Part shown: in pieces, positions 6,501 through 56,895 of the stretch
Position numbering within the stretch: the stretch's first letter is position 1
Layout of the letters: each line of letters opens with the position of its first letter
Source: Deltaproteobacteria bacterium HGW-Deltaproteobacteria-14
GTDB taxonomy: Bacteria > Myxococcota_A > UBA9042 > PHBI01
Assembly: GCA_002841945.1 (NCBI GenBank)
Contig: PHBI01000047.1
Location: 5,421 to 69,420 of the forward strand
Direction: 5' to 3'
DNA: 64,000 nucleotides
Position numbers and translations under genes: made by a program
The notes under the pieces: generated by a model
Databases searched by the model: none
Told to the model about the DNA's origin: nothing
What the model saw: the letters and a program-made list of their open reading frames with translations, nothing else

Positions 6501-8016
6501 CGGCCCGTGCGCGGCGACCGACAGCTGCGTCGAGGCGACGCGCTGCGGGCCCATCCCGAGCCTCTGCGAGCGCTCCGGCGCGTGCGAGGAGCTGCCGGGC
6601 AACACCTGCGCCTCCGCCATCCCGGTGGGCGCCCTCCCGTTCAGTGACAGCCGGGACACGGCGGACTTCACCAGCGAGTATGGCTACGGCGCCGGCTGGT
6701 GCCCGGGGGTCGACGCGACGTGGGGGTTCGCCGCGGCCGACGTCGCGTACGCGTTCACCGCGCCCACAGGAGGCCTCTATCGCTTCCAGCTCGCCACCGG
6801 CAGCGGGCTCGGGGCGTTCGACGCCAACCTCTACCTCGTCACCGACTGCGACGACGTGCGCGGCAGCTGCCTCGCCGCCGACGAGCGAGACCGGGACGAG
6901 CGCCTGTGGCGGCAGTTCTCCGCCGGCGAGAGCGCCTACCTCGTGGTCGACGGCTGGTCGAACGCGACGCCGCAGACGGGGAGCTACACGCTCAGTGTGT
7001 CGCAGTGCACACCGACGTGTGAGGACCGCGAGTGTGGGGGCGATGGCTGCATCGGGAGCTGCGGGGCGTGCGGCGCCAAGCAGGCCTGCAGCCAGGGGCG
7101 CTGCGTCGACGCCTTCGGCCTGCGCTGCGGCCAAGAGCGCGGGGTCGGCACCCTCCCGTGGAGCCACACGGACGACACCTCCAGCTGGGAGGACCGCGAG
7201 ACGAACACCTGCCCCGGCGCGCCGCCGAGCGGGGACGGGTCCAACGACGTCACCTATCAGTTCAAGGCGCCCAAGGCGGCCACGTACACGTTCCAGCTCG
7301 AGGCCGCGTTCGACGCGCAGCTCTACCTCGCCTCCGACTGCGCGGACGTTGCCGGGACGTGCCTCGCGACCGGGGGCAGCGTCCACCAGGTCGCGCTCGC
7401 CAAGGACGAGCTCGTCCGCGTCATCGTCGACGGCGCCCCGAGCGGCGGGGTCGCCAACGGCGGCTACACGCTGCGGGTGTCCGAGGCGTGCTCTCCCCGG
7501 TGCGACGGTCGCGCGTGCGGCGCCGATGGCTGTGGCGGGAGCTGTGGCGCGTGCCCGGCGCCGGCGGACATCTGCACCGGCGTCGGGGCCTGCCTCGACC
7601 CCACGAGCCTCGCGGGAAACACCTGCGAGGTCCCGTTCGCCATCGGTGCGCCGCCGTTCTCGGGCTCGGGGGACACGCGCGCGGCGTACAACCACTACGA
7701 CGTCCCGGCGAACGGGTGCGCTGGCTGGGTGCGCAAGGGGACCGGCTCGGCGGAGCAGGTCTGGCGGTTCACCGCGCCGGCGGCCGGGGACTATCGGATC
7801 GGCGTCGCGCCGGACGGCTGGGACGCGTTCGTGTACGTCGTCGCGGACTGCGCGGACCTCGGCGGGAGCTGCCTCGCGGCCTCGGATGGGCAGCGGGACG
7901 AGGCGCTTCGGGTGACCCTCGGCGCGGGCCAGGCGGTGTTCGTCGTGGTCGACGGTGAGGACGACGTCGTCGACGACGCGGGCGCGTATTCTCTGACGGT
8001 GACGCTGGCCCCCTGA
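3505..8016 (+). CDS. Secreted/lipoprotein alpha/beta-hydrolase (lipase/esterase-like GHSHGG nucleophile elbow) followed by 5 tandem modules of a Cys-rich knot (CxxxECGxxxCGxSCGxC) plus a pre-peptidase C-terminal (PPC)-like domain
   Basis: ATG 3505 gives MRHRTLVALALPMLAAVVAGGCDS (lipobox). The FFGHSHGGLSGALA motif is present. Five repeats each end in ...DCxDxxxSCLAA. GC3 is high throughout except one AT-rich patch at 6001-6050. Confidence 0.75.
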   Translation: MRHRTLVALALPMLAAVVAGGCDSATSAPADTSGAADTAAPDTAAPDAVDPSPGLGVDYTATAPGATPRFAPDAPDWMAVGWPSDRYLRDGHLDLSAFRGLSGGLFETYLDLGEQVLDGFGLNGAVYFELDGALDAATLPTPEATMGEAGYVQLVNATVGSPRFGERVPLLFRWYGGGADVYYRAHTLAMRPVYGFPLAEHETYCAVVTRAVQDADGRYLQVAPAFLAALAADPALAPLRAWLPTSPLRADDLAVATCFTTAAPTDELRRISAWITAHDAPEVDTVSEPGVFGELQGLYTAPNFQSGAKPYDSDGDGAILFDDAGDPIVQEQEQLRFLMLLPRDRPMPAGGWPTVIYAHGTGGDYESCRGVSGELNASGLAALCIDEPLHGPRGPELDYNGLVLFSFNFINPAAGRSAFRQAAIDVLTLSHMVAAGRFDLPAERVTTGDPVRLDPDRIYFFGHSHGGLSGALAFAVDPRIRGGILSGTAGVLVETILRRKDPADLAALVQGLLGVAPGDLDSFHPAMTLVQMLVDETDPINYGPYWLHPGPGGRAKHVLLTEGTEDADSPSVGTDALGAAAGLPLVLPLAKDSPAHRLRGLATLTLPVALNALAPDGPRTAAMKQYQHGTHFVAFDDPEARALWNELFRTFAADEPPTIGLGAAAVPAPATTSAGDACDDVPAIDAAALPLELRGNTSLAGADLASAGATCGDRGADGRDLTWRFTAPADGRYRFALSLPPAIDADTPRLGPDLLYLLGADCDAAGCVAARAGSGALDVDLTGGDTYTVVVDGSGWEAKGPFGLTVSQRCAVQECGERECGVVGCGSCGECGSGSYCDAEGKCQSAGPGDTCADPIEVAALPFTHTGDTGRFHHDYSYTVTDCPTFPFRFGAASSDVVFHFTAPSAGVYTAALAPGFDGNLFAVTDCADIGHSCLGAIRNAYGDERLALALGAGEGVFVIAQGAFNNSNLTGPYTFRLTSCVPDCAGKSCGDDGCGGSCGPCAATDSCVEATRCGPIPSLCERSGACEELPGNTCASAIPVGALPFSDSRDTADFTSEYGYGAGWCPGVDATWGFAAADVAYAFTAPTGGLYRFQLATGSGLGAFDANLYLVTDCDDVRGSCLAADERDRDERLWRQFSAGESAYLVVDGWSNATPQTGSYTLSVSQCTPTCEDRECGGDGCIGSCGACGAKQACSQGRCVDAFGLRCGQERGVGTLPWSHTDDTSSWEDRETNTCPGAPPSGDGSNDVTYQFKAPKAATYTFQLEAAFDAQLYLASDCADVAGTCLATGGSVHQVALAKDELVRVIVDGAPSGGVANGGYTLRVSEACSPRCDGRACGADGCGGSCGACPAPADICTGVGACLDPTSLAGNTCEVPFAIGAPPFSGSGDTRAAYNHYDVPANGCAGWVRKGTGSAEQVWRFTAPAAGDYRIGVAPDGWDAFVYVVADCADLGGSCLAASDGQRDEALRVTLGAGQAVFVVVDGEDDVVDDAGAYSLTVTLAP

Positions 8017-8143
8017 GGCGGGGGGCGTGCTGCTGGCCCAGCGAGCGCAGCGCCGCGAGCCCCGCGGGTTACAGGAAACGAGCGAAGAAACTTGTGGCGG
8101 TGCGCCAGTCGGCGAGTATGGTCCGCACTGCTCCGGAGGTCTC

Positions 8144-8341
8144 ATGTCGCTCGTCCACGCCGTCGTCCCCGCCGAACGCACCGTCGCGTCTCCCCGGCTC
8201 GAGGACCTGCGTCGGGTGGAGCGGCTCGACCGCTCGCGGCTCACCGTCGTGACGGACGGGCGCGACAACGTCGCGAACGCGACGAGCGGGTGGGCGGCGC
8301 GGTTGGCCCTGCGCGTGGCGAAGGACGGTCAGGTCGCCTGA
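8144..8341 (+). CDS. Small hypothetical protein (65 aa)
   Basis: ATG has GGAGG 7 nt upstream. GC3 is uniformly high. No recognisable domain. Confidence 0.35.
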   Translation: MSLVHAVVPAERTVASPRLEDLRRVERLDRSRLTVVTDGRDNVANATSGWAARLALRVAKDGQVA

Positions 8342-8400
8342 TTCGAGGCCGCCGGCGGTCGTCCCTTCGCCGACCCTGCCCGGGGCGTTCGCCGCCCGCT

Positions 8401-8417
8401 TGTGAACATCGTTCACC
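8401..8417. promoter_or_regulatory. Palindromic operator candidate TGTGAAC-ATC-GTTCAC, ~50 bp upstream of the hemerythrin gene
   Basis: 6-3-6 inverted repeat. A near-identical box occurs at 12101-12116. Confidence 0.45.
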
Positions 8418-8467
8418 GTTGGGCTTAGACGGGTGTAGACTGCTCCGCGATAGCAGCGGAGGCGGCC

Positions 8468-8902
8468 ATGACTACGACCAGAGACCGATTCACGGCGGAC
8501 CACAGGGCGCTCGAGGCGCAGCTCGAGGCGCTCGACAACGCCGTCGAGGGCGCGAACTTCCCGACCATCCAGGCCGCGTGGGCGCCCTTCGAGCGCGCGC
8601 TCCTCGAGCACCTCGAGGTCGAGGAGGCCGAGGCGTTGCCCGGCTTCGTGGCGGCCCACCCGGAGGCCGGCGAGGCCATTCGGGCGGACCACGCCGCCAT
8701 CCGCCGCTGGCTCGCCGAGCTCGGCGTCGCAGGCGATCTCCACACCCTGCGCAAGGACCGGCACGACGACTTCCTGGCGCTCCTGCGGGAGCACCGTGAG
8801 CGCGAGGAGGCGACGTTCTACCCATGGGTGGACGAGGCCCCGGAGGGGCTCGCCCGCAGGCTCCTGGCCGCGCTCCGACAGCGCCGCGGTGGTGGCGCCT
8901 GA
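8468..8902 (+). CDS. Hemerythrin HHE cation-binding domain protein
   Basis: 144 aa with H/E-rich motifs (DHRALEAQLEAL, EHLEVEEAEALPGF, HAAIRRWLAEL). High GC3. Confidence 0.65.
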   Translation: MTTTRDRFTADHRALEAQLEALDNAVEGANFPTIQAAWAPFERALLEHLEVEEAEALPGFVAAHPEAGEAIRADHAAIRRWLAELGVAGDLHTLRKDRHDDFLALLREHREREEATFYPWVDEAPEGLARRLLAALRQRRGGGA

Positions 8903-9143
8903 CGCCGCGGCGCCAGGGCGAGGGGGGGGCGGCCGCCGTGCGAAAAGTGAACGTCGATCAGCTTTTGTTTGTGCGGTGCACCTTCAGGAGGGCCAGATGA
9001 CCGTCCCCGCGCAGGTCGCTGGCGACGGTACGAAGCGTGACAGCAGGCCTGGGACTTGCTATCTGGATCGAGGTGCCGAAGTGGTGGCCACTCGCCCGGT
9101 GCCCCTCGAACGAACTCCTCAACGCCACAGATGGAAGCGCATC

Positions 9144-9551
9144 ATGCTCGTCCGTGACTACATGACCACCGACGTCGTCTTCGCGAACCTGCGCGACGGT
9201 CTGCACCAGACCCTCGTCAGGATGCACGAGCGCGGCATCCGGCACATGCCGGTCCTCGACGACCAGGAGCGCCTCGCGGGCTTCATCAGCGAGCGCGACC
9301 TGCGGCGCCCGGACTTCGTGGATCCCGACGAGAACCACGCGCGCCCCTTCGTGCTCGACGACTCGTTCAAGATCGAGCAGGCGATGACGATGGTGCCCGT
9401 GACCGTGGGGCCTGGAGACGACGTGCTGGTCGCGGTCGATCTCTTCATCGACCACCACTATGGCGCCCTGCCGGTGGTCGAGGGCGAGCGGGTGGTCGGG
9501 ATCCTCTCGACCATCGATCTGCTGCGGGCGGTTCGGAGACGGCTCCGCTGA
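9144..9551 (+). CDS. CBS-domain pair protein
   Basis: MLVRDYMTTDVVF...GIRHMPVLD...ALPVVEGERVVGILSTIDLL are typical CBS motifs. GC3 rises only from 9144, so the upstream part of ORF 8796 is rejected. Confidence 0.7.
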   Translation: MLVRDYMTTDVVFANLRDGLHQTLVRMHERGIRHMPVLDDQERLAGFISERDLRRPDFVDPDENHARPFVLDDSFKIEQAMTMVPVTVGPGDDVLVAVDLFIDHHYGALPVVEGERVVGILSTIDLLRAVRRRLR

Positions 9552-9624
9552 GGGCGACGGGCGAATCGTCGCGCGGCGCGACTGCAGTGCCCATTCGGGT
9601 GGAAAGCTGCCAGGGAAAGACGAC

Positions 9625-10278
9625 ATGAACAACGCCACGCCCCAGACCTGTCCTGTCACCGACCGTGGGCTGCACCTGCGGGCGGCGTGCCTCGCGTGTC
9701 ATGGCGTCCCGAACCACGGCCAGCGTCAGCTGGTCCGGGGGGACGTGCTCTTCATGCAGGGGGATCCGGCCGACCGGATCTTCGCGGTCGCGTCGGGGTG
9801 GCTTCGCGAGTACGTGCTCAACGCCGATGGCGGTCACGGCGGCGCGCGCATCGTCCACGCGGGGCAGATCGTCGGGCTCGAGGCCTTGGGCGGGGCGACC
9901 GGGGCGGTGTACGGGGTGACCGTGGACGCGCTGCGTCCGGCGAGCGTGTGCGCGATGCCGGCGAGCGGGGTGCGGTCGTGGCTGCGGGTGCGTCCGGACG
10001 ACGCGCTGGCGCTCGCCATCGCGACCGCCGAGGACCTGGCCGAGGTGCGCCAGCAGATGTTGGCCAACGCGACGCTCCCGGCCGAGGAGCGCGTCCTGGG
10101 GCTGGTGCGCGAGCTGGTGGGCGAGGGCGCGGGGGACGCGTGGGTGCGCCTGCCCGCCACCCGCGAGCAGCTGGGCGACGTCCTCGGGCTCACCCTCGAG
10201 ACGGTGTCGCGGATGATGCAGCGGCTCGCGTCGAAGGGGATCATCGAGGTCCGCGGGAGCCACGTCCGCTTCGTGTGA
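9625..10278 (+). CDS. Crp/Fnr-family transcriptional regulator (cNMP-binding domain plus C-terminal HTH)
   Basis: cNMP-binding-like core (FMQGDPADRIFAVASGW...GQIVGLEAL) and HTH (TREQLGDVLGLTLETVSRMMQRLASKGIIE). Confidence 0.75.
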   Translation: MNNATPQTCPVTDRGLHLRAACLACHGVPNHGQRQLVRGDVLFMQGDPADRIFAVASGWLREYVLNADGGHGGARIVHAGQIVGLEALGGATGAVYGVTVDALRPASVCAMPASGVRSWLRVRPDDALALAIATAEDLAEVRQQMLANATLPAEERVLGLVRELVGEGAGDAWVRLPATREQLGDVLGLTLETVSRMMQRLASKGIIEVRGSHVRFV

Positions 10279-10401
10279 CCCGCGCGGCGGGTGACGTTTT
10301 GGTTGGGCGGCGTCGCGGGTGTGGCGGCGGGGCGTGCACGCGACGTTCGCTGGGAGTAGACTGGCTCACCAGCCGTACGGCATGTGCCCCGGAGCCGAAC
10401 G

Positions 10402-11046
10402 ATGCCCGCCGAGACCACCGAGCCCCAGCTCTCCGAGCGGTTCGACCGCGCGTTGGAGTTCACCTCGCGCCTTCACCGTCGCCAGCTCCGCAAGGGGACG
10501 ACGGTGCCCTACGTGTCGCACCTGCTGGCCGTGGCCGGCATCGCGCTCGAGCACGGCGCCGACGAGGACACCGCCATCGCGGCGCTGCTGCACGACGCGG
10601 TGGAGGACCAGGGTGGGGCGAAGACCCTCGAGCACATCCGGCAGCGTTTCGGCGATCGGGTCGCCGGCATCGTGGCGGCGTGCTCGGACACCGACCGGAC
10701 GCCGAAGCCGCCGTGGCGCGTGCGCAAGGAGGCGTACCTCGAGCACCTCGCGGTGGAGCGGGACCACGCGGTGCTCCTCGTGAGCGCGTCGGATAAGCTG
10801 CACAACGCGCGGACCATCCTGGTCGACGCGCTGAGCCTCGGCGACGCCACCTGGCGGCGCTTCGCTGGCGGCAAGGAAGGATCGCTCTGGTATTACCGCT
10901 CGGTCGTCCGGACGCTGCGCGCGAACGCCGCCGCCCAGCGGTTCCCGCACCTCGTCGACGAGCTCGACCGGGTGGTGTCGCACCTCGTCGCCGTGGCCAA
11001 CGGCGCCAGCGCCGGTGACGGTCAGGCTTCGTCGTCGCCGGCGTAG
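10402..11046 (+). CDS. HD-domain phosphohydrolase, Rel/SpoT-type (small alarmone hydrolase-like)
   Basis: VSHLLAVAGIALEHGADEDTAIAALLHDAVED and FGDRVAGIVAACSD resemble the (p)ppGpp-hydrolase HD domain. Convergent 25-bp overlap with the WYL gene. Confidence 0.55.
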   Translation: MPAETTEPQLSERFDRALEFTSRLHRRQLRKGTTVPYVSHLLAVAGIALEHGADEDTAIAALLHDAVEDQGGAKTLEHIRQRFGDRVAGIVAACSDTDRTPKPPWRVRKEAYLEHLAVERDHAVLLVSASDKLHNARTILVDALSLGDATWRRFAGGKEGSLWYYRSVVRTLRANAAAQRFPHLVDELDRVVSHLVAVANGASAGDGQASSSPA

Positions 11047-12017
11047 CGTTCGACGGCGCGCGACAGCATCTCGCGAACCCGGCGGCGCAGCGACAGCGGG
11101 CGGATCACCTCGACCAGGTCGCCGAAGCTGAGGACCGGGGCGATCAGCTCGGGGCCGCTGGCCTCGAAGATGATGTCGCAGCCGCCGTCGTCGCGGAAGA
11201 TGACCTCCTGCTCGGCCATCCAGCGGCGCGCGGCGGCGTAGGGGCGGCCGCGGGCGTCGAAGCGCAGGTGCACGATCTCGGGCTTGGCGCCGTCGCTCGC
11301 GAGGCCGTACTGCGACGCCAGCAGGGGGCGCGGGTCGTACTCGCTCGGGCGCGGGTAGTCGAAGGCGGCGATCTCGGCGTGCACGACGAGCTCGCTCACG
11401 CGCTCGATGGCGTGGACCTCGTTGTGGCCGCGCTTGTGCGAGATCAGGTACAGCCCGCGCTTGTAGACCGCGATGGTGTAGGGGGCGACGCTCGTGAAGC
11501 GCAGGGTCTCGCCGGAGCGCGCGCGGTCGTAGGTGAAGCTGACGTAGTGGCCGGAGACGACGGCCTCGACGAGCTGCTGCACGATCTCCTTGTGCTGGCG
11601 ATAGTCCTTCTCGGGCTCGCGGACGTAGATGAACTTGCGGGCGAGGTCGCGCTCGGGGACGACCTCGCCGCCCATGGCCTCGAGCTGCCGGTCGAGGCGG
11701 GCGAAGGCGTCGCCGATGTCGGTGTCGCGGAGGAAGCTCTCGACGAGCTGGCGCCCGAAGAGCAGCGAGAGGCGCTCCTCGAGGCCGATGTCCATGCCGA
11801 GCTGCCGCCACGCCTCCTCGATGACCCACTCGCGGTCGCGGCCGTCGCCCTCGTGGTGCAGCGGGACGCCGTGGCGCTCGAGCGCCTTGAGGTCGTCGAG
11901 CGCCATCCGCGACGGCACCTCGAGGAGCTGCGTCACCTGGCGGGTCGAGATCCGTCCACGCCGCAGCAGGACCTGCAGGAGCCGGAGTCGGCGGGTCCAC
12001 GGATCTTCGACGGCCAT
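11022..12017 (-). CDS. WYL-domain transcriptional regulator (HTH + WYL)
   Basis: MAVEDPWTRRLRLLQVLLRRGRISTRQVTQLLEV (HTH) followed by ...YVSFTYDRARSGETLRFTSVAPYTIAVYKRGLYLISH (WYL-like). Divergent from recC. Confidence 0.65.
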   Translation of the reverse strand: MAVEDPWTRRLRLLQVLLRRGRISTRQVTQLLEVPSRMALDDLKALERHGVPLHHEGDGRDREWVIEEAWRQLGMDIGLEERLSLLFGRQLVESFLRDTDIGDAFARLDRQLEAMGGEVVPERDLARKFIYVREPEKDYRQHKEIVQQLVEAVVSGHYVSFTYDRARSGETLRFTSVAPYTIAVYKRGLYLISHKRGHNEVHAIERVSELVVHAEIAAFDYPRPSEYDPRPLLASQYGLASDGAKPEIVHLRFDARGRPYAAARRWMAEQEVIFRDDGGCDIIFEASGPELIAPVLSFGDLVEVIRPLSLRRRVREMLSRAVERYAGDDEA

Positions 12018-12100
12018 CGCACACCTCCCGCGGTCGTGACGTCGCAGTCTCCTGCGGTGGCCGCGGGTGCGCAAGCCTTCGCAGAGAGGTCGGGGGTGTG

Positions 12101-12116
12101 TGTGAACACTGTTCAT
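12101..12116. promoter_or_regulatory. Palindromic operator candidate TGTGAAC-ACT-GTTCAT in the WYL-recC divergent promoter region
   Basis: Same 6-3-6 architecture as 8401-8417. An adjacent GTTCAG half-site follows at 12120-12126. Confidence 0.45.
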
Positions 12117-12214
12117 CGCGTGTTCAGTACGCTCGCTGGGCCCACATCGTCGCTATGGTCGAGCGTCGGCCCGGTTGACGGGTTCTACACGCCGACGGAA
12201 GCTGCCGTGTCGCG

Positions 12215-15200
12215 ATGACCAAGCACCTGCACATCCACCGCTCGAACCGCGTCGAGGAGCTCGTGGCCGCCCTGGCCGCCATGCCCCCGGCCCTCGGCGA
12301 TCCGTTCGCCACGGAGCGGATCGCGGTCCAGAGCCGGGGGATAGAGGCGTGGCTCACGATGCGCTTGGCGGAGCACCGCGGGATCGCCGCCAACCTCGAG
12401 TTCACCTCACCCGACCGCCTCGTGGCGGCGGCCGTCGCCGGCGCCCTCGGTGACCGCGCCGACGCCACCGACGCGTGGGCTCCGGGGCGCCTCCGCTGGC
12501 GCGTCCTCGCGGCGCTCCCCGAGCACCTCGACCACCCCGCCCTCGGGACCCTGCGGCGCTACCTCGAGCAGCGCGACGGTGCCCCGCCCGAGCGGCGGCG
12601 CGTCACCCTGGCGACCCGGGTCGCCGAGGTGTTTCATCGCTACACCATCTACCGCCCGGACGTGGTCGCCGCCTGGGAGCGGGGGGAGGACGACGGCACC
12701 TGGCAGCCGCTGCTGTGGCGAGCGCTGGCGGCGGGGGTGCCCACTCGGCACCTCGGCCACCGCCTCGCGGCCTTCGTCGCCGCCGTGGACGCCGACGGGG
12801 AGGGCGCGCTGACCGGGGTGACCGGTCGGGTCGTGGTGTTCGGCGTCAACACCCTCCCGCCCCGCTACGTCGAGGCGCTCGGGGCCATCGCGCGCCACCG
12901 CGAGGTCCACCTCTTCTTGCCCTGCGCCTCGGCCGCCGGGCGCGAGCAGGACCGCCTCGTCGCCGCGGGCGAGAACCCACGCTTCCGAAACCCGCTGCTC
13001 GCCTCCTTCGATCGCCTCGGGAGCGACCTGCAGCGCCTCCTCGACGGGCTCGGCGGGCGACCGCGCTACCACGACCGCTTCGTCGCCCCGGGGGCCGAGA
13101 CCGCCCTCGCTGCACTGCAAGAAGACGTGCTCCTGCTGCGCGATCGCGGGGCGCCGAGCGCGCATCCTGAGAAAGACAAGCGACCTGAACCACTCGTGAT
13201 GGATGGCGAAGATCGCTCGGTGCAGGTCCATGTCTGCCATGGTGCAATGCGGCAGGTCGAGGTCCTCAGGGACACCCTGCTCGGCCTCTTCGCGGGGGAC
13301 GCGTCCCTCGAGCCGCGCGACGTCGTGGTCCTCACGCCCGACATCGACACCTTCGCGCCGCTGATCCACGCCGTGTTCGCCGACGGGGACTCCCCCGAAG
13401 GGGAGCGCGGCTTTCCGGCGCTGCACCAGGTCCACGACCTGAGCCTGCAGCGGGCGAACCCGTGGGCGGAGGCCTTCCTCGAGCTCCTCGATCTCGCGAC
13501 CGGGCGGCTGAAGGCGAGCACGGTGTTCGCGTTCCTGGCGCTGCCGCCCGTGCTCGACACCATCGGGATCGGCGCCGACGAGCTGGCGAAGGCGCGCACC
13601 TGGCTCGCGCAGGCGGGGGCGCGGTGGGGGCGCGACGCCGCGGACCGGGCGCGCCACGGGCAGCCCGAGGACCCGCTCCACACCTGGCGCTTCGCCTTCG
13701 AGCGGCTCCTGCTCGGGCACGCCCTGGCCAACGACGGCTTCCAGCGCTTCGCGGGGGTGAGCCCCTACGACGACATCGAGGGCAAGGACGCGCTGATCGC
13801 CGGGCAGGTCATCGACTACCTCGAGCGCCTCTTCGACACCCTCGACACCCTGCGCGAGCCGCGCACCCTGTCGGCGTGGCGCGATCGCTGCGCGGCGCTC
13901 GTCGCCGACCTCCTGGTCCACGACGACGACTCCGCCGGGCGGGCCAAGGCGATCCTCGACGTGCTCAACGACCTCGTCGCCGGGGCGGCGGACGCCGGCT
14001 ACGACGACCCGGTCGAGGTCGAGGCGCTCCGCGCGCTGCTCGACGCGCCGTTCAACGCGCGCCGGACCGCCGTGACCTTCCTGTCGGGGGGGATGACCTT
14101 CTGCACCATGGTGCCGATGCGCAGCCTGCCTTTCCGGGTCGTCTGCCTGCTCGGGATGGACGACAGCAGCTTCCCGCGCGGCGGCGCGGGGTTGGGCTTC
14201 GACCGGACGCGGATCGACGAGGCCCGAGTCGGCGACCGCGACGACCGCGCCGATGACCGTCAGGCCTTCCTCGAGACGCTGCTCTCGGCCCGCGATCACC
14301 TCGTGGTGACCTACAGCGGCCGGAGCCTCGGCGACAACCAGCAGACCCCACCGTGCGTGCCGCTGGCCGAGCTGCTGGCCGTGCTCGAGCGCGGGTTCCG
14401 AGGCGCCTGGCGCACCGAGCACCCGCTGTCGCCGTTCAGCCCGGCCAACTTCGGGGTCGGCGCCGACGGGGCCTCGCGGGAGGCGCTGTCCTTTGACCGG
14501 CGCTTCCTCGCCGGCGCGCGCCGGCTCCGCGGGCCCCGGGTCTCTCCGGCGCCGTTCTGCGACGGCACCCCGGTGCCGGCGCCCGCCGCGGGCGTGGTCC
14601 AGCTCACGGCCCTCGTGGCCTTCTTCAAGGACCCCACCGCCGCGTTCCTCAAGCAGCGCCTCGACGTCTCCCTCGACGAGCGCGACGACGAGATCGCCGA
14701 CCAGGCGCCGCTCGCGATGGACGGGCTCGGGCGCTGGGCGCTCGGCCGCGACCTGGTGCGCTGGCGCCTGCGCGGCGCTAGCGACGAGGAGGCGCGGGCG
14801 GCGGTGCTCGCGGATGGGCGCCTGCCGTCCGGCGCCCTGGCGCGCGCGCGGCTCGACGAGGTCGATCCGAAGGCGCGTCGCATCGCGCGCCGCGTCGCGG
14901 GGTTGCGCATGGGGGCGCGGCGGGTGGTGCCGATCGCGGTCGAGCTCGACGGCGTCGAGCTGCGCGGTCGCGTCGACGACGTGTTCGACCGGGGCCGCGT
15001 GGCCTTTCACCCCACCTCGGCCCGGGTGAAGCACCTGCTCGACGTCTGGATCCATCACCTCGCCCTCGGCGCCGTCGACGCCCTGCCGGACCAGTCGCAC
15101 CTGGTGGCCAGCAACGGGGTCTTCTCCTTCGCCAGGATCTCGCCAGAGCGCGCTCGCGACCTGCTCGGGCGGCTCGTCGCGCTCTACCGGCGGGGGATGA

Positions 15201-15457
15201 TGGCGCCGCTCCCGTTCGCGCCCGAGACCTCGGACGCTTGGCTGTGGGCGCGGCGCGGGAACAAGGGACCCGAGGCCTGCCGCTTCGAGGCGAAGAAGGC
15301 CTGGGTCACGTACTTCAGCAAGCGCGGCGAGGACGCCTCGCCCTCGGCGGCCCGCGTCTGGGGGGAGGAGCTGCTCTTCGAACACCCGGACTTCCCCGAG
15401 GTGTCGGCGGCGGTGCTCGAGCCGCTGCACGCCGCGAAGTCGAAGGTGCCGCTGTGA
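12215..15457 (+). CDS. recC: Exodeoxyribonuclease V gamma subunit RecC
   Basis: 1080 aa. N-terminus MTKHLHIHRSNRVEELVAAL is RecC-like. Followed by recB and recD with overlapping starts. Contains an AT-rich codon patch at 13160-13245. Confidence 0.85.
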   Translation: MTKHLHIHRSNRVEELVAALAAMPPALGDPFATERIAVQSRGIEAWLTMRLAEHRGIAANLEFTSPDRLVAAAVAGALGDRADATDAWAPGRLRWRVLAALPEHLDHPALGTLRRYLEQRDGAPPERRRVTLATRVAEVFHRYTIYRPDVVAAWERGEDDGTWQPLLWRALAAGVPTRHLGHRLAAFVAAVDADGEGALTGVTGRVVVFGVNTLPPRYVEALGAIARHREVHLFLPCASAAGREQDRLVAAGENPRFRNPLLASFDRLGSDLQRLLDGLGGRPRYHDRFVAPGAETALAALQEDVLLLRDRGAPSAHPEKDKRPEPLVMDGEDRSVQVHVCHGAMRQVEVLRDTLLGLFAGDASLEPRDVVVLTPDIDTFAPLIHAVFADGDSPEGERGFPALHQVHDLSLQRANPWAEAFLELLDLATGRLKASTVFAFLALPPVLDTIGIGADELAKARTWLAQAGARWGRDAADRARHGQPEDPLHTWRFAFERLLLGHALANDGFQRFAGVSPYDDIEGKDALIAGQVIDYLERLFDTLDTLREPRTLSAWRDRCAALVADLLVHDDDSAGRAKAILDVLNDLVAGAADAGYDDPVEVEALRALLDAPFNARRTAVTFLSGGMTFCTMVPMRSLPFRVVCLLGMDDSSFPRGGAGLGFDRTRIDEARVGDRDDRADDRQAFLETLLSARDHLVVTYSGRSLGDNQQTPPCVPLAELLAVLERGFRGAWRTEHPLSPFSPANFGVGADGASREALSFDRRFLAGARRLRGPRVSPAPFCDGTPVPAPAAGVVQLTALVAFFKDPTAAFLKQRLDVSLDERDDEIADQAPLAMDGLGRWALGRDLVRWRLRGASDEEARAAVLADGRLPSGALARARLDEVDPKARRIARRVAGLRMGARRVVPIAVELDGVELRGRVDDVFDRGRVAFHPTSARVKHLLDVWIHHLALGAVDALPDQSHLVASNGVFSFARISPERARDLLGRLVALYRRGMMAPLPFAPETSDAWLWARRGNKGPEACRFEAKKAWVTYFSKRGEDASPSAARVWGEELLFEHPDFPEVSAAVLEPLHAAKSKVPL

Positions 15458-18400
15458 GCGCCACCCGTGAGAGCGGGAGCCCGAGCTCCCGCCCCTTCGA
15501 CCCGCTCGGCCCCCTCGCGACCGGGGGCGTGCTGCTCGAGGCGAGCGCCGGGACCGGCAAGACGTGGAGCATCACGAGCCTCGTCCTGCGGCTCGTCGTC
15601 GAGGAGGACGTGCGCATCGAGAACGTCCTCGCGGTGACCTTCACCAACGCGGCGACCGCGGAGCTGCGGGCGCGCGTCTGGGACCGGCTCGACGAGGCGC
15701 TGCGGACGGTCGAGAGCTACTGGCGAGAGGATCCGAAGCCGGCGCCGGACGACGTGATCGGGCGGCTCGTCACGCTGGCGACCGGGGGGCTCGGCTTCGC
15801 CATCGTGCTCGGCCGCCTGCGCGCGGCGCTCGAGGGCTTCGACCGCGCGCAGATCTGGACGATCCACGGCTTCTGCCAGCGGATGCTGCAGCAGAACGCG
15901 CTCGCGAGCGGGGTCGCCTTCGACACCACCCTGGTCGAGGACGAGCGTGCGCTGGTCCGAGAGGTCGTCGAGGACTTCTGGCAGCGGGAGCTCTACGCGG
16001 CGACGCCGGCGACGCTGGCGCTGCTGACCGGCGTGGGCCTCGACCTCGACCGCGCGGTGAGCCTCGGCGACCTCGCGATCCGCCACCCCGACGCCGAGGT
16101 CGTGCCGGCCGAACCCGAGGCGCTGCCCCCCCCGGCGATGCCGAAGACGACGGCGGCGCGCGCCGCCCTCGAGCGGTTCTGGTGGAAGGACCGTCGCCGG
16201 GCGGTCGCCATCATCAAACAGGCGGCCGAGCAGGGCCTCTTGCACCGCCGCTTCCCCGTGGCCGAGCTCGACGGCGTCATGGACGTGGGCGACGCCGTCG
16301 TCCGCGGGGCGCTGGACCGGACGAGCTTCTTCAAGCTCCGCGTCCTCGACGGCGCGCGCCTCGCGAAGTCCATGGCCTCTGGCGGCGCCCCCCTCCGACA
16401 CCCGCTGTTCGACCTCGTGAGCGCCCTGCGCGCCGCCTGGATCGAGGAGATGCCGACGGCGGCCGACTACCTGCTGTCCTTTCGCTACCGCCTCATCGCG
16501 GAGGTGCGGGCGGCCGTCCGCCGGCGGCGCGAGGCCAGCGCCCAACGCTCCTTCGACGATCTCCTGCGGCTCTTGCGCGAGGCCCTCGAGGCGCCTGGCA
16601 CCGGCGCCGAGCTGGCCGCCTCCATCCGCAAGCAGTTCCGCGCGGTGCTCATCGACGAGTTCCAGGACACCGATCCGGTCCAGTGGGCGATCTTCGATGG
16701 CCTCTTCGTCGCACAGCCGCGGCACTGGCTCTACCTGATCGGGGATCCCAAGCAGGCGATCTATCGCTTTCGCGGCGCCGACATCGACACCTACCTCGCC
16801 GCCAAACGCGCCCTCGGCGGCCGCATCGAGACCCTCGCGCGGAGCTATCGAAGCGACGCGCGCCTCGTCCAGGCCCAGAACGTGCTGTTCGACACCGGCC
16901 CGGCCGCCTTCGCGACCCGGGGCATCGACTACGAGCGGGTCGCCGCCCAGCACGCTGACCGCGCCGAGGGGATCGGCGCCCCTCTGAGGCTCCTCTTTGT
17001 GCGTCGCAACAGGCACCGAGAGATCGACGCCAAGTGGCGCGACAACGAGCTCCCACGGCGGGTCGCCGCGGACATCGCTTCGCTCTTGCACAAGGGCGGG
17101 ACGCTGCGCGCGAAGGCGAGCGACGAGCCGCGCCCGGTGCGCCCGCGGGACTGCGCGGTGCTGGTGCGCACCAACCGCCAGGCGACGGCGATCCAGGACG
17201 CGCTCCGCGACGTCGGCGTCCCGAGCGTGCTCCACGGACCCGACAGCGTGTTCGGGACCGTGGAGGCGCAGGAGCTCGAGCGGCTGCTCGCGGCGATCCT
17301 CGAGCCCGCCCGCACCCGGCTCGCGCGGACGGCGCTGGCGACCGGGCTCCTCGGCGGGACCGCCGTGACGATCGCGGAGGCGGCGGCGGATCCCCAGCGC
17401 TGGGAGGCGTGGGTCGGCGAGCTCCGCGGGTGGCTGCGAGGGTGGCAGGAGCGTGGGGTCGTGCATCTGCTGCGGACCCTGGTCGCGGGCCGCCTCTCGG
17501 GGGTGCTCGCCCGGGTCGATGGCGAGCGCTGCATGGCGAACCTGCTGCACCTGACCGAGCTGCTCCACAACGCGGAGGTCGGCCTCGGGCTCGACCCGGC
17601 CGGGGTCCTCGAGTGGCTCCGGCGGGCGCGGCGAGACGCTGACGATGATGACGCGAGCGCGGCGCTGCGGCTCGAGAGCGACGCCGAGGCGGTCGAGATC
17701 GTCACCATCCACAAGAGCAAGGGGCTCGAGTACCCGCTGGTGTGGTGTCCATATCTGGGGTTGCCGGACAGCGGGCGCACACCACCGGCCTATCTCCACT
17801 TCCGCGACCCCGGGGATGACCACGGCGAGAAGCTCGACGTGGCCCCGGAGCGCCGCGAGTGGGCAGGTCACCAGCAGCTGGTGAGCTACGAGCTCGCCGC
17901 TGAGGGCCTGCGGCTCCTCTACGTCGCGCTGACCCGCGCCAAGCATCAGGTGACGGTCTGGTGGGGGGGCTTTCGGGACGCCCATCGCTCGCCGCTCTGG
18001 TACGCGCTCCACCGGGGCGCCGCGGAGGTCTTTGACGCGGAGGCGCTCGAGCGGTTTCGTGAGCGCACGGTCCGCGACGTCACCGATGACCAGCTGCTCG
18101 CCGAGCTGAGCACCCTCGCGACCCGCTCCGAGCACACGATCGCGGTGGTCGAGGACCTCCCGCGCGAGGTGCCTCGATACGAGGTGATCGCGCACAGCGA
18201 CGTGACCCTCGCGCCCCTCCGCTACGACCGGGCGACCCCGATCGAGAACGGGTGGCGCCGGACGAGCTTCACCGGGCTGACGCGCCACGTCGACTACCAC
18301 GTCGAGACGGCCCAGGCGGCCGAGGACGAGACGGCGCTCGAGGTCGACGAGGGCTCGAGCTCGCTCGCGGAGCTGGCGGTGACGCCGGTGACCTCGGTCC

Positions 18401-19296
18401 CCCTCGCGGACCTCCCGGGCGGGCGCGGGACCGGCAACTTCCTCCACGAGGTGCTCGAGCACGTGGACTTCCAGGGCAGCGCGGAGGCCCTGCGCGCGCT
18501 CGTGGTCGAGCGCCTCCCACGGCACGGCATCGACGAGGGGTGGGCGGAGCTGGTGACCGTCGGGCTCGGCGCCGCGCTGGGAACCCCGCTCCACGCCGGC
18601 GAGGGCGCCCCGTGCCTGGCCGATCTGCCGACCTCGCGGCGGCTCAACGAGCTCGGCTTCACCTTCCCCCTCGCCCACGGGGGGGGGACTGGAGCCGGGC
18701 GCGCGAGGCCGCGGCCGCTGTCGCCGGAGCGCCTCGCGGAGGTCTTCGCGCGCCACCCGGAGCCCGGGGTGCCGCGGGGCTGGATCGAGCGCCTCCGGGC
18801 GCTGTCGTTCCTACCGGCCCGGGGCTTCGTGACCGGCGCCATCGATCTCGTCTTCGAGGGTGAGGACGGTCGCTTCTACGTCGTCGACTACAAGTCGAAC
18901 CACCTCGGCGCGCGCCCGGCGGACTACGACACGGTGGGGATGGAGCGCGCGATGGCCGCGCACCACTACTTCCTCCAGTACCACCTCTACACGGTCGCGG
19001 CGGTGCGGTACCTGCGCACGCGGATCCCGGACTTCGCCTACGAGCGCCACTTCGGGGGCGTCTACTACCTGTTTCTGCGCGGCATGGCGCCGGGCCACCC
19101 GGCGGGCACCGGGGTGTTCGCCGCGACCCCGCCCGAGTCGCTGATCGCCGACCTGTCGGACGCCCTCGATGGACTCGTATCGGTCGCGGACCTACGTCCT
19201 CCGCGGCCGAGCGGCGCGGCCACGGTGGCTCCCACCGGGTCGCCAGGTACGGACTCCGGTCCACGACCCGCCGTGCCCGGGGGGGGCGAGCGATGA
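15454..19296 (+). CDS. recB: Exodeoxyribonuclease V beta subunit RecB (UvrD-type helicase + PD-(D/E)xK nuclease)
   Basis: GTG 15454 overlaps the recC stop (GTGA). Walker A LLEASAGTGKTW. C-terminal nuclease motif IDLVFEGEDGRFYVVDYKSN. The last ~35 aa are encoded by the dispersed repeat. Confidence 0.9.
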   Translation: MSATRESGSPSSRPFDPLGPLATGGVLLEASAGTGKTWSITSLVLRLVVEEDVRIENVLAVTFTNAATAELRARVWDRLDEALRTVESYWREDPKPAPDDVIGRLVTLATGGLGFAIVLGRLRAALEGFDRAQIWTIHGFCQRMLQQNALASGVAFDTTLVEDERALVREVVEDFWQRELYAATPATLALLTGVGLDLDRAVSLGDLAIRHPDAEVVPAEPEALPPPAMPKTTAARAALERFWWKDRRRAVAIIKQAAEQGLLHRRFPVAELDGVMDVGDAVVRGALDRTSFFKLRVLDGARLAKSMASGGAPLRHPLFDLVSALRAAWIEEMPTAADYLLSFRYRLIAEVRAAVRRRREASAQRSFDDLLRLLREALEAPGTGAELAASIRKQFRAVLIDEFQDTDPVQWAIFDGLFVAQPRHWLYLIGDPKQAIYRFRGADIDTYLAAKRALGGRIETLARSYRSDARLVQAQNVLFDTGPAAFATRGIDYERVAAQHADRAEGIGAPLRLLFVRRNRHREIDAKWRDNELPRRVAADIASLLHKGGTLRAKASDEPRPVRPRDCAVLVRTNRQATAIQDALRDVGVPSVLHGPDSVFGTVEAQELERLLAAILEPARTRLARTALATGLLGGTAVTIAEAAADPQRWEAWVGELRGWLRGWQERGVVHLLRTLVAGRLSGVLARVDGERCMANLLHLTELLHNAEVGLGLDPAGVLEWLRRARRDADDDDASAALRLESDAEAVEIVTIHKSKGLEYPLVWCPYLGLPDSGRTPPAYLHFRDPGDDHGEKLDVAPERREWAGHQQLVSYELAAEGLRLLYVALTRAKHQVTVWWGGFRDAHRSPLWYALHRGAAEVFDAEALERFRERTVRDVTDDQLLAELSTLATRSEHTIAVVEDLPREVPRYEVIAHSDVTLAPLRYDRATPIENGWRRTSFTGLTRHVDYHVETAQAAEDETALEVDEGSSSLAELAVTPVTSVPLADLPGGRGTGNFLHEVLEHVDFQGSAEALRALVVERLPRHGIDEGWAELVTVGLGAALGTPLHAGEGAPCLADLPTSRRLNELGFTFPLAHGGGTGAGRARPRPLSPERLAEVFARHPEPGVPRGWIERLRALSFLPARGFVTGAIDLVFEGEDGRFYVVDYKSNHLGARPADYDTVGMERAMAAHHYFLQYHLYTVAAVRYLRTRIPDFAYERHFGGVYYLFLRGMAPGHPAGTGVFAATPPESLIADLSDALDGLVSVADLRPPRPSGAATVAPTGSPGTDSGPRPAVPGGGER
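19171..19275 (+). repeat. Copy A of the ~100-bp dispersed repeat, occupying the 3' end of recB
   Basis: Aligns with 32592-32695 (same strand) and 3241-3340 (inverted). Confidence 0.7.
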
Positions 19297-21083
19297 GCGC
19301 GCTCGACGCCTTCGTGGCGGCGCGGATCCTCGACCCGCTGGCGGTGCAGTTCGCGCGCGCGATGGCGCGGCTCGTCGCCGAGCCCCCGGCGGACGCGGTG
19401 CTGCTCGGGCTGGCCGCGGCCAGCGCGGCGGTCAACCGCGGGCACGTCTGCTGCGCGCTCGCAGACGCCGCGTCGCTCTTGCCGCCGGACGTCGAGGGGG
19501 TCGGGGAGGCCGAGGTCGAGCCCCCCGCCTGGCCGGAGCTCGAGGCGTGGCGTGACGCGCTCGCGGCGAGCCCGCTCGTCGCCCTCGCGAGCGTAGCCGT
19601 GACGTCGTCGGCGCCCCTGGTCCTCGACGGCGAGCGCCTCTACCTCCACCGCTACTGGGAGTACGAGCGACGGCTCGCGGGGGCGCTGGCGAGGAGGGCG
19701 CGCGGCCTGGCCCCGGTGGTCGACGTGGCGCGGCTCGGCGCGGCCCTGGAGCGGCTCTTCCCGAGCCGCGGCGACGAGCCCGATCTGCAGCGCGAGGCTG
19801 CGCGGCGGGCGGTCGAGCGGCGTCTGGCCATCATCACCGGGGGGCCTGGCACCGGGAAGACGTCGACGGTGGTGCGGGTGCTCGCGGCGATCCTCGACCA
19901 GGCGCCCCACGCCCGGATCCAGCTCCTCGCGCCGACCGGCAAGGCGGCGGTGCGGATGAGCGAGGCGGTTCGGGAGGCCAAAGAGGACCGCGAGCGGCTC
20001 GACATCTCGGACGAGGTGCGCGCGCGCATCCCCGAGGAGGCGTCCACCATCCACCGCGCGCTCGGGTATCAGCCCGGCAGCCCCACGCGCTTCTTCCATG
20101 GCGAGGACTACCCGTTGCTCGCCGACGTCGTGGTCGTGGACGAGGCCTCGATGGTCGATCTCTCGCTGATGGCCAAGCTGGTGCTCGCCGTGCGCGAGGA
20201 CGCGCGGCTCGTGCTGCTGGGCGACAAGGACCAGCTCGCGAGTGTCGAGGCGGGCTATGTGCTCGGCGAGCTGTGCAAGAGCGACGTGCTGGCGCCGTGC
20301 CGGGTCGAGCTGCTCAAGAGCCACCGCTTCGACGGCGAGGGGGGGATCGGCTCCCTCGCCCGGGCCATCAACGCCGGAGACGCCGCCCGCACCTTGGAGA
20401 TCCTGCGGGACCCGGGCCAGCCCGAGGTGGTCCTGGTCGAGCCAGCCGCCCTCCTCGGCGACCTCGAAGCGCAGCTCCGGGACCTCGTGCTGCCGCACCT
20501 GCGCGCCCGGGTCCGCGCGTCGCGCTCACCCTCGGAGGCGCTCGCCGCCCTGGGCCGCTTTCAGGTGCTGACCGCGCACCGTCGCGGTCGCTTCGGGGCC
20601 GCGCTGTTGAACCAGGTGGCCGAGCGCTGGCTCGCCGCGTCCGGCGACGTCGTCCCCCACGACGCGGGCTACGCGGGCCAGCCGATCGTGGTGACCGTCA
20701 ACGATCGCGTGCTCCAGCTCTTCAACGGCGACACCGGGGTCGTGCTGCCGGACGCTGAGGGCCGGCTGCGGGCCTACCTCCCCGACACCCGCGACGGCGG
20801 GATCCGGAGCCTGACCCCGGCGCAGCTCCCCCCACACGAGACGTTCTACGCCACGACGGTCCACAAGGGGCAAGGGTCCGGCTATGACGAGGTGGTCGTG
20901 GTGCTGCCCACCGATCCCTCTCCCGTCGTGACCCGCGAGCTCCTCTACACCGCGGTCACTCGCGCGCGCCGAAAGGTGACGCTGGTCGGCACCGAGGCCG
21001 TGATGCGCCACGCGGTAGGGAGCCGCATCCTTCGTGCCTCCGGGCTGGCGGTCGCCCTCGGCCGCGATGGTGCTCTGGGGTGA
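19293..21083 (+). CDS. recD: Exodeoxyribonuclease V alpha subunit RecD
   Basis: ATGA overlap with the recB stop. Walker A ITGGPGTGKTST and Walker B VVVDEASMVD. C-terminus TTVHKGQGSGYDEVVVVLP...TAVTRARRKVTLVG. Confidence 0.9.
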   Translation: MSALDAFVAARILDPLAVQFARAMARLVAEPPADAVLLGLAAASAAVNRGHVCCALADAASLLPPDVEGVGEAEVEPPAWPELEAWRDALAASPLVALASVAVTSSAPLVLDGERLYLHRYWEYERRLAGALARRARGLAPVVDVARLGAALERLFPSRGDEPDLQREAARRAVERRLAIITGGPGTGKTSTVVRVLAAILDQAPHARIQLLAPTGKAAVRMSEAVREAKEDRERLDISDEVRARIPEEASTIHRALGYQPGSPTRFFHGEDYPLLADVVVVDEASMVDLSLMAKLVLAVREDARLVLLGDKDQLASVEAGYVLGELCKSDVLAPCRVELLKSHRFDGEGGIGSLARAINAGDAARTLEILRDPGQPEVVLVEPAALLGDLEAQLRDLVLPHLRARVRASRSPSEALAALGRFQVLTAHRRGRFGAALLNQVAERWLAASGDVVPHDAGYAGQPIVVTVNDRVLQLFNGDTGVVLPDAEGRLRAYLPDTRDGGIRSLTPAQLPPHETFYATTVHKGQGSGYDEVVVVLPTDPSPVVTRELLYTAVTRARRKVTLVGTEAVMRHAVGSRILRASGLAVALGRDGALG

Positions 21084-21211: not shown

Positions 21212-21231
21212 AATTAGAACGGGTCTAAATT
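21212..21231. promoter_or_regulatory. Inverted repeat AATTAGA-N5-TCTAAATT in the AT-rich island upstream of peroxiredoxin; candidate PerR/OxyR-type operator. A TTGACC -35-like hexamer lies at 21243.
   Basis: aattagaacgggtctaaatt lies ~140 bp upstream of the prx ATG in an otherwise GC-rich context. Confidence 0.35.
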
Positions 21232-21372
21232 TCGAACGACTGTTGACCCGCCGGACGGGGTCCGTAGAGGTAGGCGAGTCAAACACCCCTTCGGCGCGGC
21301 GGAGCTGAGGCTCGGCGCGAACAGTGCGCGCGGCGCGGCCGGAGGCAACCCGATGAACAGGAACACGAAGCG

Positions 21373-21897
21373 ATGATCTCGATCGGAAAGAAGTCCCCCG
21401 AGTGGAAGGCGACCGCCTACGTCAACGGCGAGCAGCAGACGATCTCGAGCGAGGACTACAAGGGCAAGTGGCACATCCTCTACTGGTACCCGTTGGACTT
21501 CACCTTCGTGTGCCCGACGGAGATCAAGGGCTTTCAGGCGCTGCTGAGCGACTTCGCCGATGACGGCGTGGCGATCATCGGCGCGAGCACCGACTCGTTC
21601 TTCAGCCACCAGGCCTGGTTCGCCGACCGCGAGACGTTCCCGCAGGAGATCACCCACCCGGTGATCGCCGACACGGCCCACGCGGTCTCGAAGGCGTTCG
21701 GCGTCCTCAAGAAGGACGAGGGCATCGCCTACCGCGCGACCGTGATCATCGATCCCGAGGGCGTCGTGCGGAGCGTGGCGGCCAACGACCTCAGCGTGGG
21801 TCGCAACCCGGAGGAGAGCCTCCGCACGGTGCAGGCGCTGCAGAGCGGCGGTCTGTGCGGCGTGAACTGGAAGAAGGGCGAGACCTTCGTCGGCTGA
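21373..21897 (+). CDS. 2-Cys peroxiredoxin (AhpC/Prx1 family)
   Basis: Peroxidatic-Cys motif DFTFVCPTEI and resolving Cys near the C-terminus (GGLCGVNW). 174 aa. Confidence 0.9.
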   Translation: MISIGKKSPEWKATAYVNGEQQTISSEDYKGKWHILYWYPLDFTFVCPTEIKGFQALLSDFADDGVAIIGASTDSFFSHQAWFADRETFPQEITHPVIADTAHAVSKAFGVLKKDEGIAYRATVIIDPEGVVRSVAANDLSVGRNPEESLRTVQALQSGGLCGVNWKKGETFVG

Positions 21898-38196: not shown

Positions 38197-38382
38197 CGCA
38201 CCTCCCCCGGCGCAGGTGGTAGCAGATGGGTCGTCGATTGTCATGATGTGCCCGGCCGTCGGGCGCCGTCGGTGGGCTCGCGGGCGCGCCGGCGCCGGCG
38301 GAGCGCGGAGCTCGCGGGCTATTGTTTCGGTCCGGCGACTATGGGAGGGTCCCACGACCAGCATTCACCGGGAGCGAGGGGC

Positions 38383-56820: not shown

Positions 56821-56895
56821 GCGCGTGACCGAGCGAGGCGCCTGCGGGCGCCTCGCTCGTTTTGACGCACTGCACAAGGGCGGGGGTTTTCTACG

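Follow-up and report, generated by a model that had tools for sequence, protein, structure and literature searches.

A WYL-domain regulator divergent from recCBD in an uncultured member of the Myxococcota and a conserved box as its candidate operator

RecBCD is usually regarded as constitutively expressed, in the classic view derived from Escherichia coli. Here we analyze a WYL-domain transcription regulator gene that lies divergent from a recC-recB-recD operon, together with a short conserved box between them, in a 64-kb stretch of DNA (positions 5,421 to 69,420 of contig PHBI01000047.1; hereafter the window). The window belongs to a metagenome-assembled genome of an uncultured member of the Myxococcota with 73% guanine plus cytosine, and all loci compared with it are likewise contigs of uncultured organisms. 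Regulation of this kind would form no new category, since WYL factors are already known to control adnAB, recJ, and defence operons. Among the closest described systems, DriD of Caulobacter crescentus is the activator of an SOS-independent damage response; cryo-electron microscopy and promoter alignments place its operators at an identical distance from the -10 element in promoters that lack a -35 element, and its regulon includes the nuclease gene recJ (PMC13004042). The activator SiwR of Mycobacterium smegmatis is encoded divergently from its target operon, with the operator in a short intergenic promoter that carries a -26-type element (PMC10693628). A third activator, PafBC, is strictly required for expression of adnAB, which encodes a helicase-nuclease of break-end resection (PMC8682763). 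CapW and BrxR, finally, are repressors of adjacent defence operons with a winged helix-turn-helix (wHTH), a WYL, and a WCX domain, and CapW is released by single-stranded DNA (PMC11662680, PMC9122601).

The regulator gene of the window (11022-12017, minus strand) encodes a protein of 331 amino acids, the start of which, at 12017, is fixed by an alignment of 19 homologues. Its WYL domain (PF13280, residues 144-209) scores 30.6 bits against a Pfam cut-off of 21.8, and its C-terminal WCX dimerisation domain (PF25583, residues 248-321), which aligns with the WCX domain of DriD, scores 42.7 bits against a cut-off of 23.9. Pfam gave no helix-turn-helix match for the window protein itself; however, positions 4-53 of the family profile match the helix-turn-helix of PafBC (6sj9), the homologue P0008 has a weak HTH_11 match, and the helices RRLxLLxxL...RRxALxDLxxL are conserved across the family. 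For the WYL-WCX part, DriD is the best match among solved structures (E 1e-16), and PADLOC assigned the protein to generic WYL models only. From this domain content, the protein is a member of the wHTH-WYL-WCX transcription regulators, the class of DriD, PafBC, SiwR, CapW, and BrxR, and it has the same domain order as DriD. When we compared the family with the single-stranded DNA contacts of DriD (PMC9186387), the equivalents of Y168 and Y192 were invariant, as were other basic residues (the KRG of YKRGLY), and the position of R207 was an invariant alanine in every member. An N-terminal extension of the gene from an ATG at 12116 was discarded, being in frame in the window only, whereas the homologues start at the equivalent of 12017.

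On the other side of the intergenic region, recC (12215-15457, TIGR01450, 816 bits against a cut-off of 583), recB (15454-19296, TIGR00609, 778 against 696), and recD (19293-21083, TIGR01447, 494 against 310) lie on the plus strand, all above their NCBIfam equivalog cut-offs. They form one operon with overlapping start and stop codons, in which the GTG start of recB overlaps the recC stop, and a PD-(D/E)XK nuclease domain is present in RecB; the three genes together thus encode a RecBCD enzyme. Coordinates and profile matches agree with the divergent WYL/recCBD arrangement given in a preliminary description of this DNA.

We found a ten-base-pair box, TGTTCAGTAC (12121-12130, plus strand), in the intergenic region (12018-12214) that is invariant at all ten positions in four lineages with the divergent WYL/recCBD arrangement, in which the region as a whole is 55-73% identical. 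It includes the GTTCAG (12122-12127) that the preliminary description had treated as a half-site adjacent to a palindrome. Twenty-three nucleotides after the box, in every recC locus, stands a -10-like hexamer (TATGGT in the window, 12154-12159, plus strand) that is invariant at five of six positions in a four-way alignment of the WYL-recC intergenic region; we refer to the putative promoter as P1. When loci were aligned by the direction of the neighbouring gene, variants of the box (TGWWCAGTNC) appeared beside WYL homologues in 11 independent loci: TGTTCAGTAC in the window, L007, L001, L011, and L003, TGTTCAGTGC in L010, L014, and L015, TGTTCAGTCC in L023, TGAACAGTAC in L005, and TGAACAGTGC in L022. 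The distance from the box to a -10-like hexamer was 23-24 nt in all 11, and the hexamer read TAnnnT in ten of them (TATGGT three times, TAGGGT, TAAAAT, TATGTT, TACGGT, TACCTT, TACCAT, and TATCAT), the eleventh being CATGCT in L014. None of the 11 box promoters has a TTGACA-like hexamer at the -35 position. Downstream of the hexamer the neighbouring gene begins, with a Shine-Dalgarno sequence before its start codon except in L010, where the ATG comes at once. Divergent or in tandem, the WYL gene and the gene beside it always have the box between them, directed toward the latter, and in the tandem loci it starts a few to about 40 nt past the WYL stop codon. By comparative sequence analysis, then, the box holds the fixed position relative to the -10 in the promoter of the adjacent gene that is expected of an operator.

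By our own estimate, a box with this spacing and a TAnnnT hexamer would arise by chance at a frequency of about 2e-5 per 300-bp intergenic region. The window holds one exact copy, at 12121-12130, and one copy with a single mismatch, at 36180, which falls within a gene and is not followed by a -10; in the window and about 330 kb of compared loci, exact copies adjoin WYL genes only. A promoter for an alternative sigma factor was considered and rejected, since 23 nt exceeds the spacing that a -35/-10 pair allows and the -10 itself is sigma70-like. Covariation between box variants and residues of the recognition helix gave no clear pattern. We also note a weakly conserved GCTGG at box +14 to +18 (12135-12139 in the window, about -31 to -27) in six to seven of the 11 loci, which recalls the -26 element of PafBC and SiwR promoters.

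The WYL clade that accompanies the box is small. A word-indexed search returned 19 homologues, a search of 1.84 billion proteins gave 26 representative clusters at E<=1e-30, and scans with the WYL alignment yielded five loci from a genome collection and two from a metagenome collection. Conservation of the divergent arrangement in relatives had been proposed as a check, and we found that it recurs in four lineages: the window, L007 (94% WYL identity), L001/L002/L016 (79%), and L011 (78%). In these recC lineages HD, FNR-like, and CBS genes flank the other side of the WYL/recCBD locus. Outside them, the genes faced by the box include an AddAB-like pair and a pPIWI-RE operon, among others. The WYL homologue P0014 (48% identical) is divergent from an AddB/AddA-like pair, a PD-(D/E)XK protein followed by a UvrD-helicase/PD-(D/E)XK protein; P0015 (also 48% identical) lies directly upstream of a pPIWI-RE operon; the homologue of L015 lies upstream of an operon with a GajB-like UvrD helicase and that of L014 upstream of a weak Cas3-HD-like gene; and P0009 (55% identical) is divergent from a TPR gene and a NIF phosphatase. 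Because these distant homologues adjoin other helicase-nuclease operons, including the AddAB-like pair, the regulatory link between the WYL protein and recBCD appears to be real.

We therefore favour, as probable though well short of certain, the reading that the WYL protein acts locally, controlling the divergent recCBD operon through TGTTCAGTAC, most likely by activating a promoter that lacks a -35 element. The protein would bind the box at about -45 to -36 of P1, an incomplete promoter with a -10 and no -35, and would most likely help RNA polymerase onto it, as DriD, SiwR, and PafBC do at their promoters. The trigger would be a nucleic-acid-type signal, indicative of DNA damage or invasion, that is bound by the WYL domain. 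A ligand-activated activator is favoured because a fixed distance from box to -10 in the lack of a -35 is the geometry of DriD and close to that of SiwR. In Myxococcus xanthus, the RecD protein rises after mitomycin C (PMC12288472).

The likeness to each of the described activators is partial. DriD binds a 21-bp pseudo-palindrome, ATACGAC-N7-GTCGTAT, whereas the element conserved here is a 10-bp asymmetric box; the regulon of DriD is dispersed, whereas the putative target in the window is the divergent neighbour. SiwR resembles the window regulator in being a homodimer encoded beside its target operon, but its site is a 19-bp palindrome between -35 and -10, its -26-type element compares with only a weak GCTGG in the promoters described here, and its targets are DinB-like genes rather than recBCD. 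With PafBC the window regulator would have in common that a WYL factor drives a break-resection helicase-nuclease and that an asymmetric promoter motif lies upstream of the -10. PafBC, however, is a heterodimer whose genes belong to the proteasome locus; it governs about 150 genes through a motif near -26, in contrast to the one regulator gene, the putative target next to it, and the box at about -40 described here.

Several observations weigh against this interpretation. The four recC lineages are closely related, so their synteny alone is weak evidence. The clade members L008/L013, L018, L019, and L017 have no box beside the WYL gene. Characterised WYL dimers recognise palindromes or pseudo-palindromes of 19-21 bp, but the conserved element described here has 10 bp and is asymmetric, and on inspection of the aligned loci a partner half-site in the 7-N7-7 arrangement of DriD was not conserved. 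At the non-recC loci the box forms the right half of an imperfect nAAC-N4-GTTCAG palindrome, like the LexA box of M. xanthus. Finally, several of the single-stranded DNA contacts of DriD (K202, R204, W206, and R207) are not kept, Y168 and Y192 alone being retained, and for this reason the ligand of the WYL domain is uncertain.

The WYL protein might instead repress, in the manner of CapW and BrxR, by occupying the box until ligand binding frees the promoter, an alternative that we consider unlikely. CapW and BrxR share its domain content and govern adjacent operons, and five homologues in our set are directly upstream of, and co-directional with, the neighbouring operon, which is the CapW/BrxR layout. 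The neighbours of these five are defence-like in L010, L014, and L015 (respectively a pPIWI-RE operon, the Cas3-HD-like gene, and the operon with the GajB-like helicase), and in L022 and L023 the contig ends there. CapW and BrxR differ, however, in having palindromic operators over the promoter, whereas the box lies upstream of the -35 position and covers neither -35/-10 nor the start site. Moreover, promoters with no -35 would be weak unaided, and the closest solved relative, DriD, is an activator.

The main competing explanation holds that the box, and perhaps the palindromes described below, are LexA operators, that recCBD and the other WYL-adjacent operons are ordinary SOS genes, and that the WYL gene is a mere neighbour. 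The SOS box of M. xanthus is CTRHAMRYBYGTTCAGS, with the recN example ...GTGTTCAGG (PMC9705874), and the core GTTCAG of our box is identical to its half-site and common to the Cheo-type box, GAAC-N4-GTTC; at non-recC loci nAAC-N4-GTTCAG extends the resemblance. By manual count, the 17-mer ending in the box matches the M. xanthus consensus at 13 of 17 positions in the window, at 14 in L001, and at 11-14 elsewhere. RecD and two WYL proteins, furthermore, are up in a lexA mutant of M. xanthus (PMC12288472). We nonetheless regard this explanation as distinctly unlikely. A fixed 23-24 nt to a -10 with no -35 fits an activator that contacts RNA polymerase rather than a repressor with variable operator positions, and the box is upstream of, not over, the core promoter. 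It accompanies WYL genes into at least five unrelated gene contexts in both orientations, and it is distinguished from the LexA and Cheo boxes by its GT(A/G)C extension, its poor left half at the recC loci, and a T after GTTCAG where the consensus has S. A match to a LexA/SOS consensus including the 4-nt spacer, whether the Cheo box or that of M. xanthus, was not found, and the palindromes have an N3 rather than an N4 spacing. A search for lexA or recA, the promoters of which would reveal the SOS box of this lineage, found neither gene in the window or among the compared loci.

The preliminary description had placed the operator elsewhere, in a TGTGAAC-N3-GTTCA palindrome. It had listed three similar 6-N3-6 palindromes, and we found all of them: TGTGAAC-ACT-GTTCAT (TGTGAACACTGTTCAT, 12101-12116), which ends 4 bp upstream of the box, so that GTTCAG follows it at 12122-12127; TGTGAAC-ATC-GTTCAC (TGTGAACATCGTTCAC, 8401-8416), 52 nt before the hemerythrin ATG at 8468; and a degenerate copy, GTGAACGTCGATCAG (8947-8961), about 75 nt upstream of a conserved promoter of the CBS gene. 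They do have 3-nt spacers, and so differ from the 4-nt spacer of the Cheo-type box as had been said. All three are intergenic and lie within 3.7 kb, and a repeat search grouped them independently as family D16. With up to one mismatch, GTGAACNNNGTTCAC occurs at two sites against 0.09 expected, a number reached in none of 100 shuffles, and TGAACNNNGWTCA occurs at three distinct sites against 0.05 expected; because both patterns had been built from the very sites they count, a realistic significance is no more than modest, at roughly P 0.01-0.05 for finding another near-perfect copy between genes. An origin of the three as a mobile repeat, of the repetitive extragenic palindromic type, was rejected, the flanks being unrelated.

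In that earlier interpretation the palindrome is the operator of the WYL protein, and recBCD, hemerythrin, and CBS form one oxidative/DNA-damage regulon. The clustering of three similar intergenic sites above chance speaks for it, the half-site TGTTCA is the core of the conserved box, and at the recC promoters the position of the palindrome and a loose TGA-N7-TCA persist in three of four lineages. The palindrome is, however, conserved no better than the intergenic background. Seven of its 16 columns are invariant in the four-way alignment, against 36% for the whole intergenic region, and its identity to L007, L001, and L011 is 62%, 69%, and 62%, against 73%, 55%, and 56% for the region, whereas the neighbouring box is 10/10 invariant. 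In L007, the WYL protein of which is 94% identical with a nearly identical recognition helix (one substitution falls just before the helix), the palindrome reads GCGAATGGGATTCAT and the box is unchanged. Beside the seven box-carrying WYL homologues at non-recC loci, we found no such palindrome.

The other two copies are kept no better. L007 and L001 lack the hemerythrin gene; in both, CBS comes directly after a gene of 65 amino acids. In the window, the hemerythrin palindrome overlaps the -35 position of a TAGACT -10 (8436-8441); in L020, which has the same order of 65-amino-acid, hemerythrin, CBS, and Fnr genes and a hemerythrin 69% identical, the -10 persists as TGTAGAAT but the palindrome does not. 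L007 alone retains the CBS-upstream copy, as ATGAACCTCGATCAT; L001, L011, and L020 lack it. A regulon defined by the palindrome is therefore, in our judgement, very unlikely, and membership of the hemerythrin and CBS copies in the WYL system is not supported. The recC copy, which has the TGTTCA core in common with the box, may be an auxiliary site in the window lineage.

Of the regulon proposed in the preliminary description, which joined WYL-controlled recBCD to hemerythrin, CBS, Crp, and alarmone-hydrolase genes, one part finds support: recurring synteny and the conserved box speak for the WYL-recBCD link, albeit through a different element than had been proposed. The shared-palindrome part is not supported, the hemerythrin and CBS copies being absent in relatives that have the same synteny. 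Because the palindromes are not kept, and because the CBS-Fnr-HD operon and ahpC have conserved promoters of their own, a local module from the WYL protein to recCBD is indicated rather than a wide regulon.

A further candidate reader of the palindromes is encoded in the same cluster, at about 9625-10278, 2 kb away. This FNR/FixK-like regulator gene lies in an operon between CBS and an HD gene (SpoT-type hydrolase), and its product has an N-terminal C-x13-C-x2-C cluster and an ETVSR helix, features that suggest an iron-sulfur sensor of oxygen or redox state. The palindromes could belong to this protein, which would bring hemerythrin, the operon encoding the regulator, and recC/WYL under the influence of oxygen or redox state, with the WYL box unconnected to it. 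The regulator is 78-91% identical across the recC lineages, its helix is of the FNR type, the hemerythrin palindrome is centred at about -39/-40 from the putative start, close to a class II position, and TGTGA is a Crp-type half-site. Nevertheless we rate this explanation as highly improbable. Crp/Fnr sites have the form TGA-N6-TCA, whereas all three palindromes are TGA-N7-TCA with an odd centre and did not qualify as operators of this type; no TTGAT-N4-ATCAA with two or fewer mismatches occurs in 8000-12400; and the palindromes are not kept in L001, L011, and L020 although the regulator is.

Returning to the proposed local control of recCBD by the WYL protein, a sensor-regulator dedicated to the adjacent recBCD would mean that, in some bacteria, the principal nuclease acting on double-strand breaks and against phages is adjusted to demand. 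With the box also standing before AddAB-like and defence operons, repair and immunity would be linked through one regulator family, and TGWWCAGTNC-N23-24-TANNNT offers a search pattern for mapping the regulon in Myxococcota genomes. In a broader version, which we put forward as a conjecture that is doubtful though worth stating, this small Myxococcota WYL clade, its 10-bp box, and the promoter with no -35 would make up a portable 'inducible promoter cassette' placed before RecBCD, AddAB-like, pPIWI-RE, and GajB-like genes. RecBCD would then be induced by the same nucleic-acid signal as defence systems, with a ligand that is possibly not the single-stranded DNA of DriD, and hemerythrin would join the circuit in the window lineage by way of the additional TGTTCA palindromes.

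The remaining anatomy of the intergenic region points to further putative promoters. On the minus strand, the regulator has a putative -35 TTGCGC (12069-12074) and a putative -10 GAGACT (12046-12051). The -10 is kept in all four recC-type loci 17 nt from a -35-like TTGCnn, and the TTGC core and the 17-nt spacing are invariant in the window, L007, L001, and L011. A Shine-Dalgarno sequence, GGGAGG (12024-12029), precedes the ATG at 12017. The regulator would thus be expressed from an ordinary weak promoter, probably constitutively. Toward recC, a second conserved block, CCGGTTGACGGG (12171-12182, plus strand), is identical at 11-12 of 12 positions in each relative pairwise and invariant at 13 of 14 in the four-way alignment. 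One possibility is that it holds the -35 (TTGACG, 12175-12180) of another promoter, P2, with GAAGCT (12198-12203) as the partner hexamer; alternatively, it could be an operator or an element of the 5' untranslated region. The spacing from TTGACG to GAAGCT or GAAGTT is 17-18 nt, and GAAGCT lies close to the recC ATG at 12215. If active, this box-independent P2 (12175-12203) may supply basal RecBCD.

The centre of the recC palindrome falls at about -57 from the putative P1 start and about -70 from that of the regulator, outside both putative core promoters. No Rfam element matched in 7900-12400 at E<=1, and neither putative transcript includes the palindrome. The tetranucleotide TCAT at 12113-12116, which reads ATGA on the minus strand, does not vary among the four recC-type loci.

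Profile searches confirmed the hemerythrin, CBS, Crp/Fnr-family, and HD_4 (SpoT-type hydrolase) gene calls of the window. The gene of about 65 amino acids that precedes hemerythrin or CBS in the window (about 8144-8341), L007, L001, and L020 has no Pfam family. The CBS operon has its own sigma70-type promoter, GTGACA (9037-9042), 17 nt, and TATCTG (9060-9065), which is conserved in five lineages. Other genes of DNA metabolism in the window are a SNF2-family helicase of 1358 amino acids (34288-38364, minus strand), a UDG-superfamily glycosylase (48213-49166), and recJ (56866-58638) directly after secDF; their upstream regions contain neither the box nor the palindrome. On the other side of recD, ahpC (21373-21897, an AhpC/TSA peroxiredoxin) follows co-directionally in the window, L007, and L001. 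It has a conserved promoter of its own, TTGACC ... TAGAGG (21243-21270), before which a conserved palindrome, TTAGAA-cgg-GTCTAA (21214-21228), is probably the operator of a peroxide-type regulator.

Some of the compared loci have features of their own. In L008 (about 3000-3040) and L013 (about 9040-9080), where the WYL homologues are 54% identical and have no box, a common segment, ACAATGTAATTGTCTGTAATCGC.GTTCAC, precedes a TIG/FG-GAP/lectin gene of more than 3500 amino acids. In L017, a distant WYL homologue (30% identical) is immediately followed by a tandem array (8995-9299) of 7.5 head-to-tail copies of a 41-nt unit; the copies show 97% matches, and every one contains an inverted repeat. 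In L005, a second box-like site, TGTACAGTAC (14537-14546), stands after GAAC-N4 just upstream of the Shine-Dalgarno sequence and ATG of an N6/N4 methyltransferase gene; the island around it is defence-like, also encoding a second WYL-domain protein, a PDDEXK_11 protein, and an ADP-ribosylglycohydrolase.

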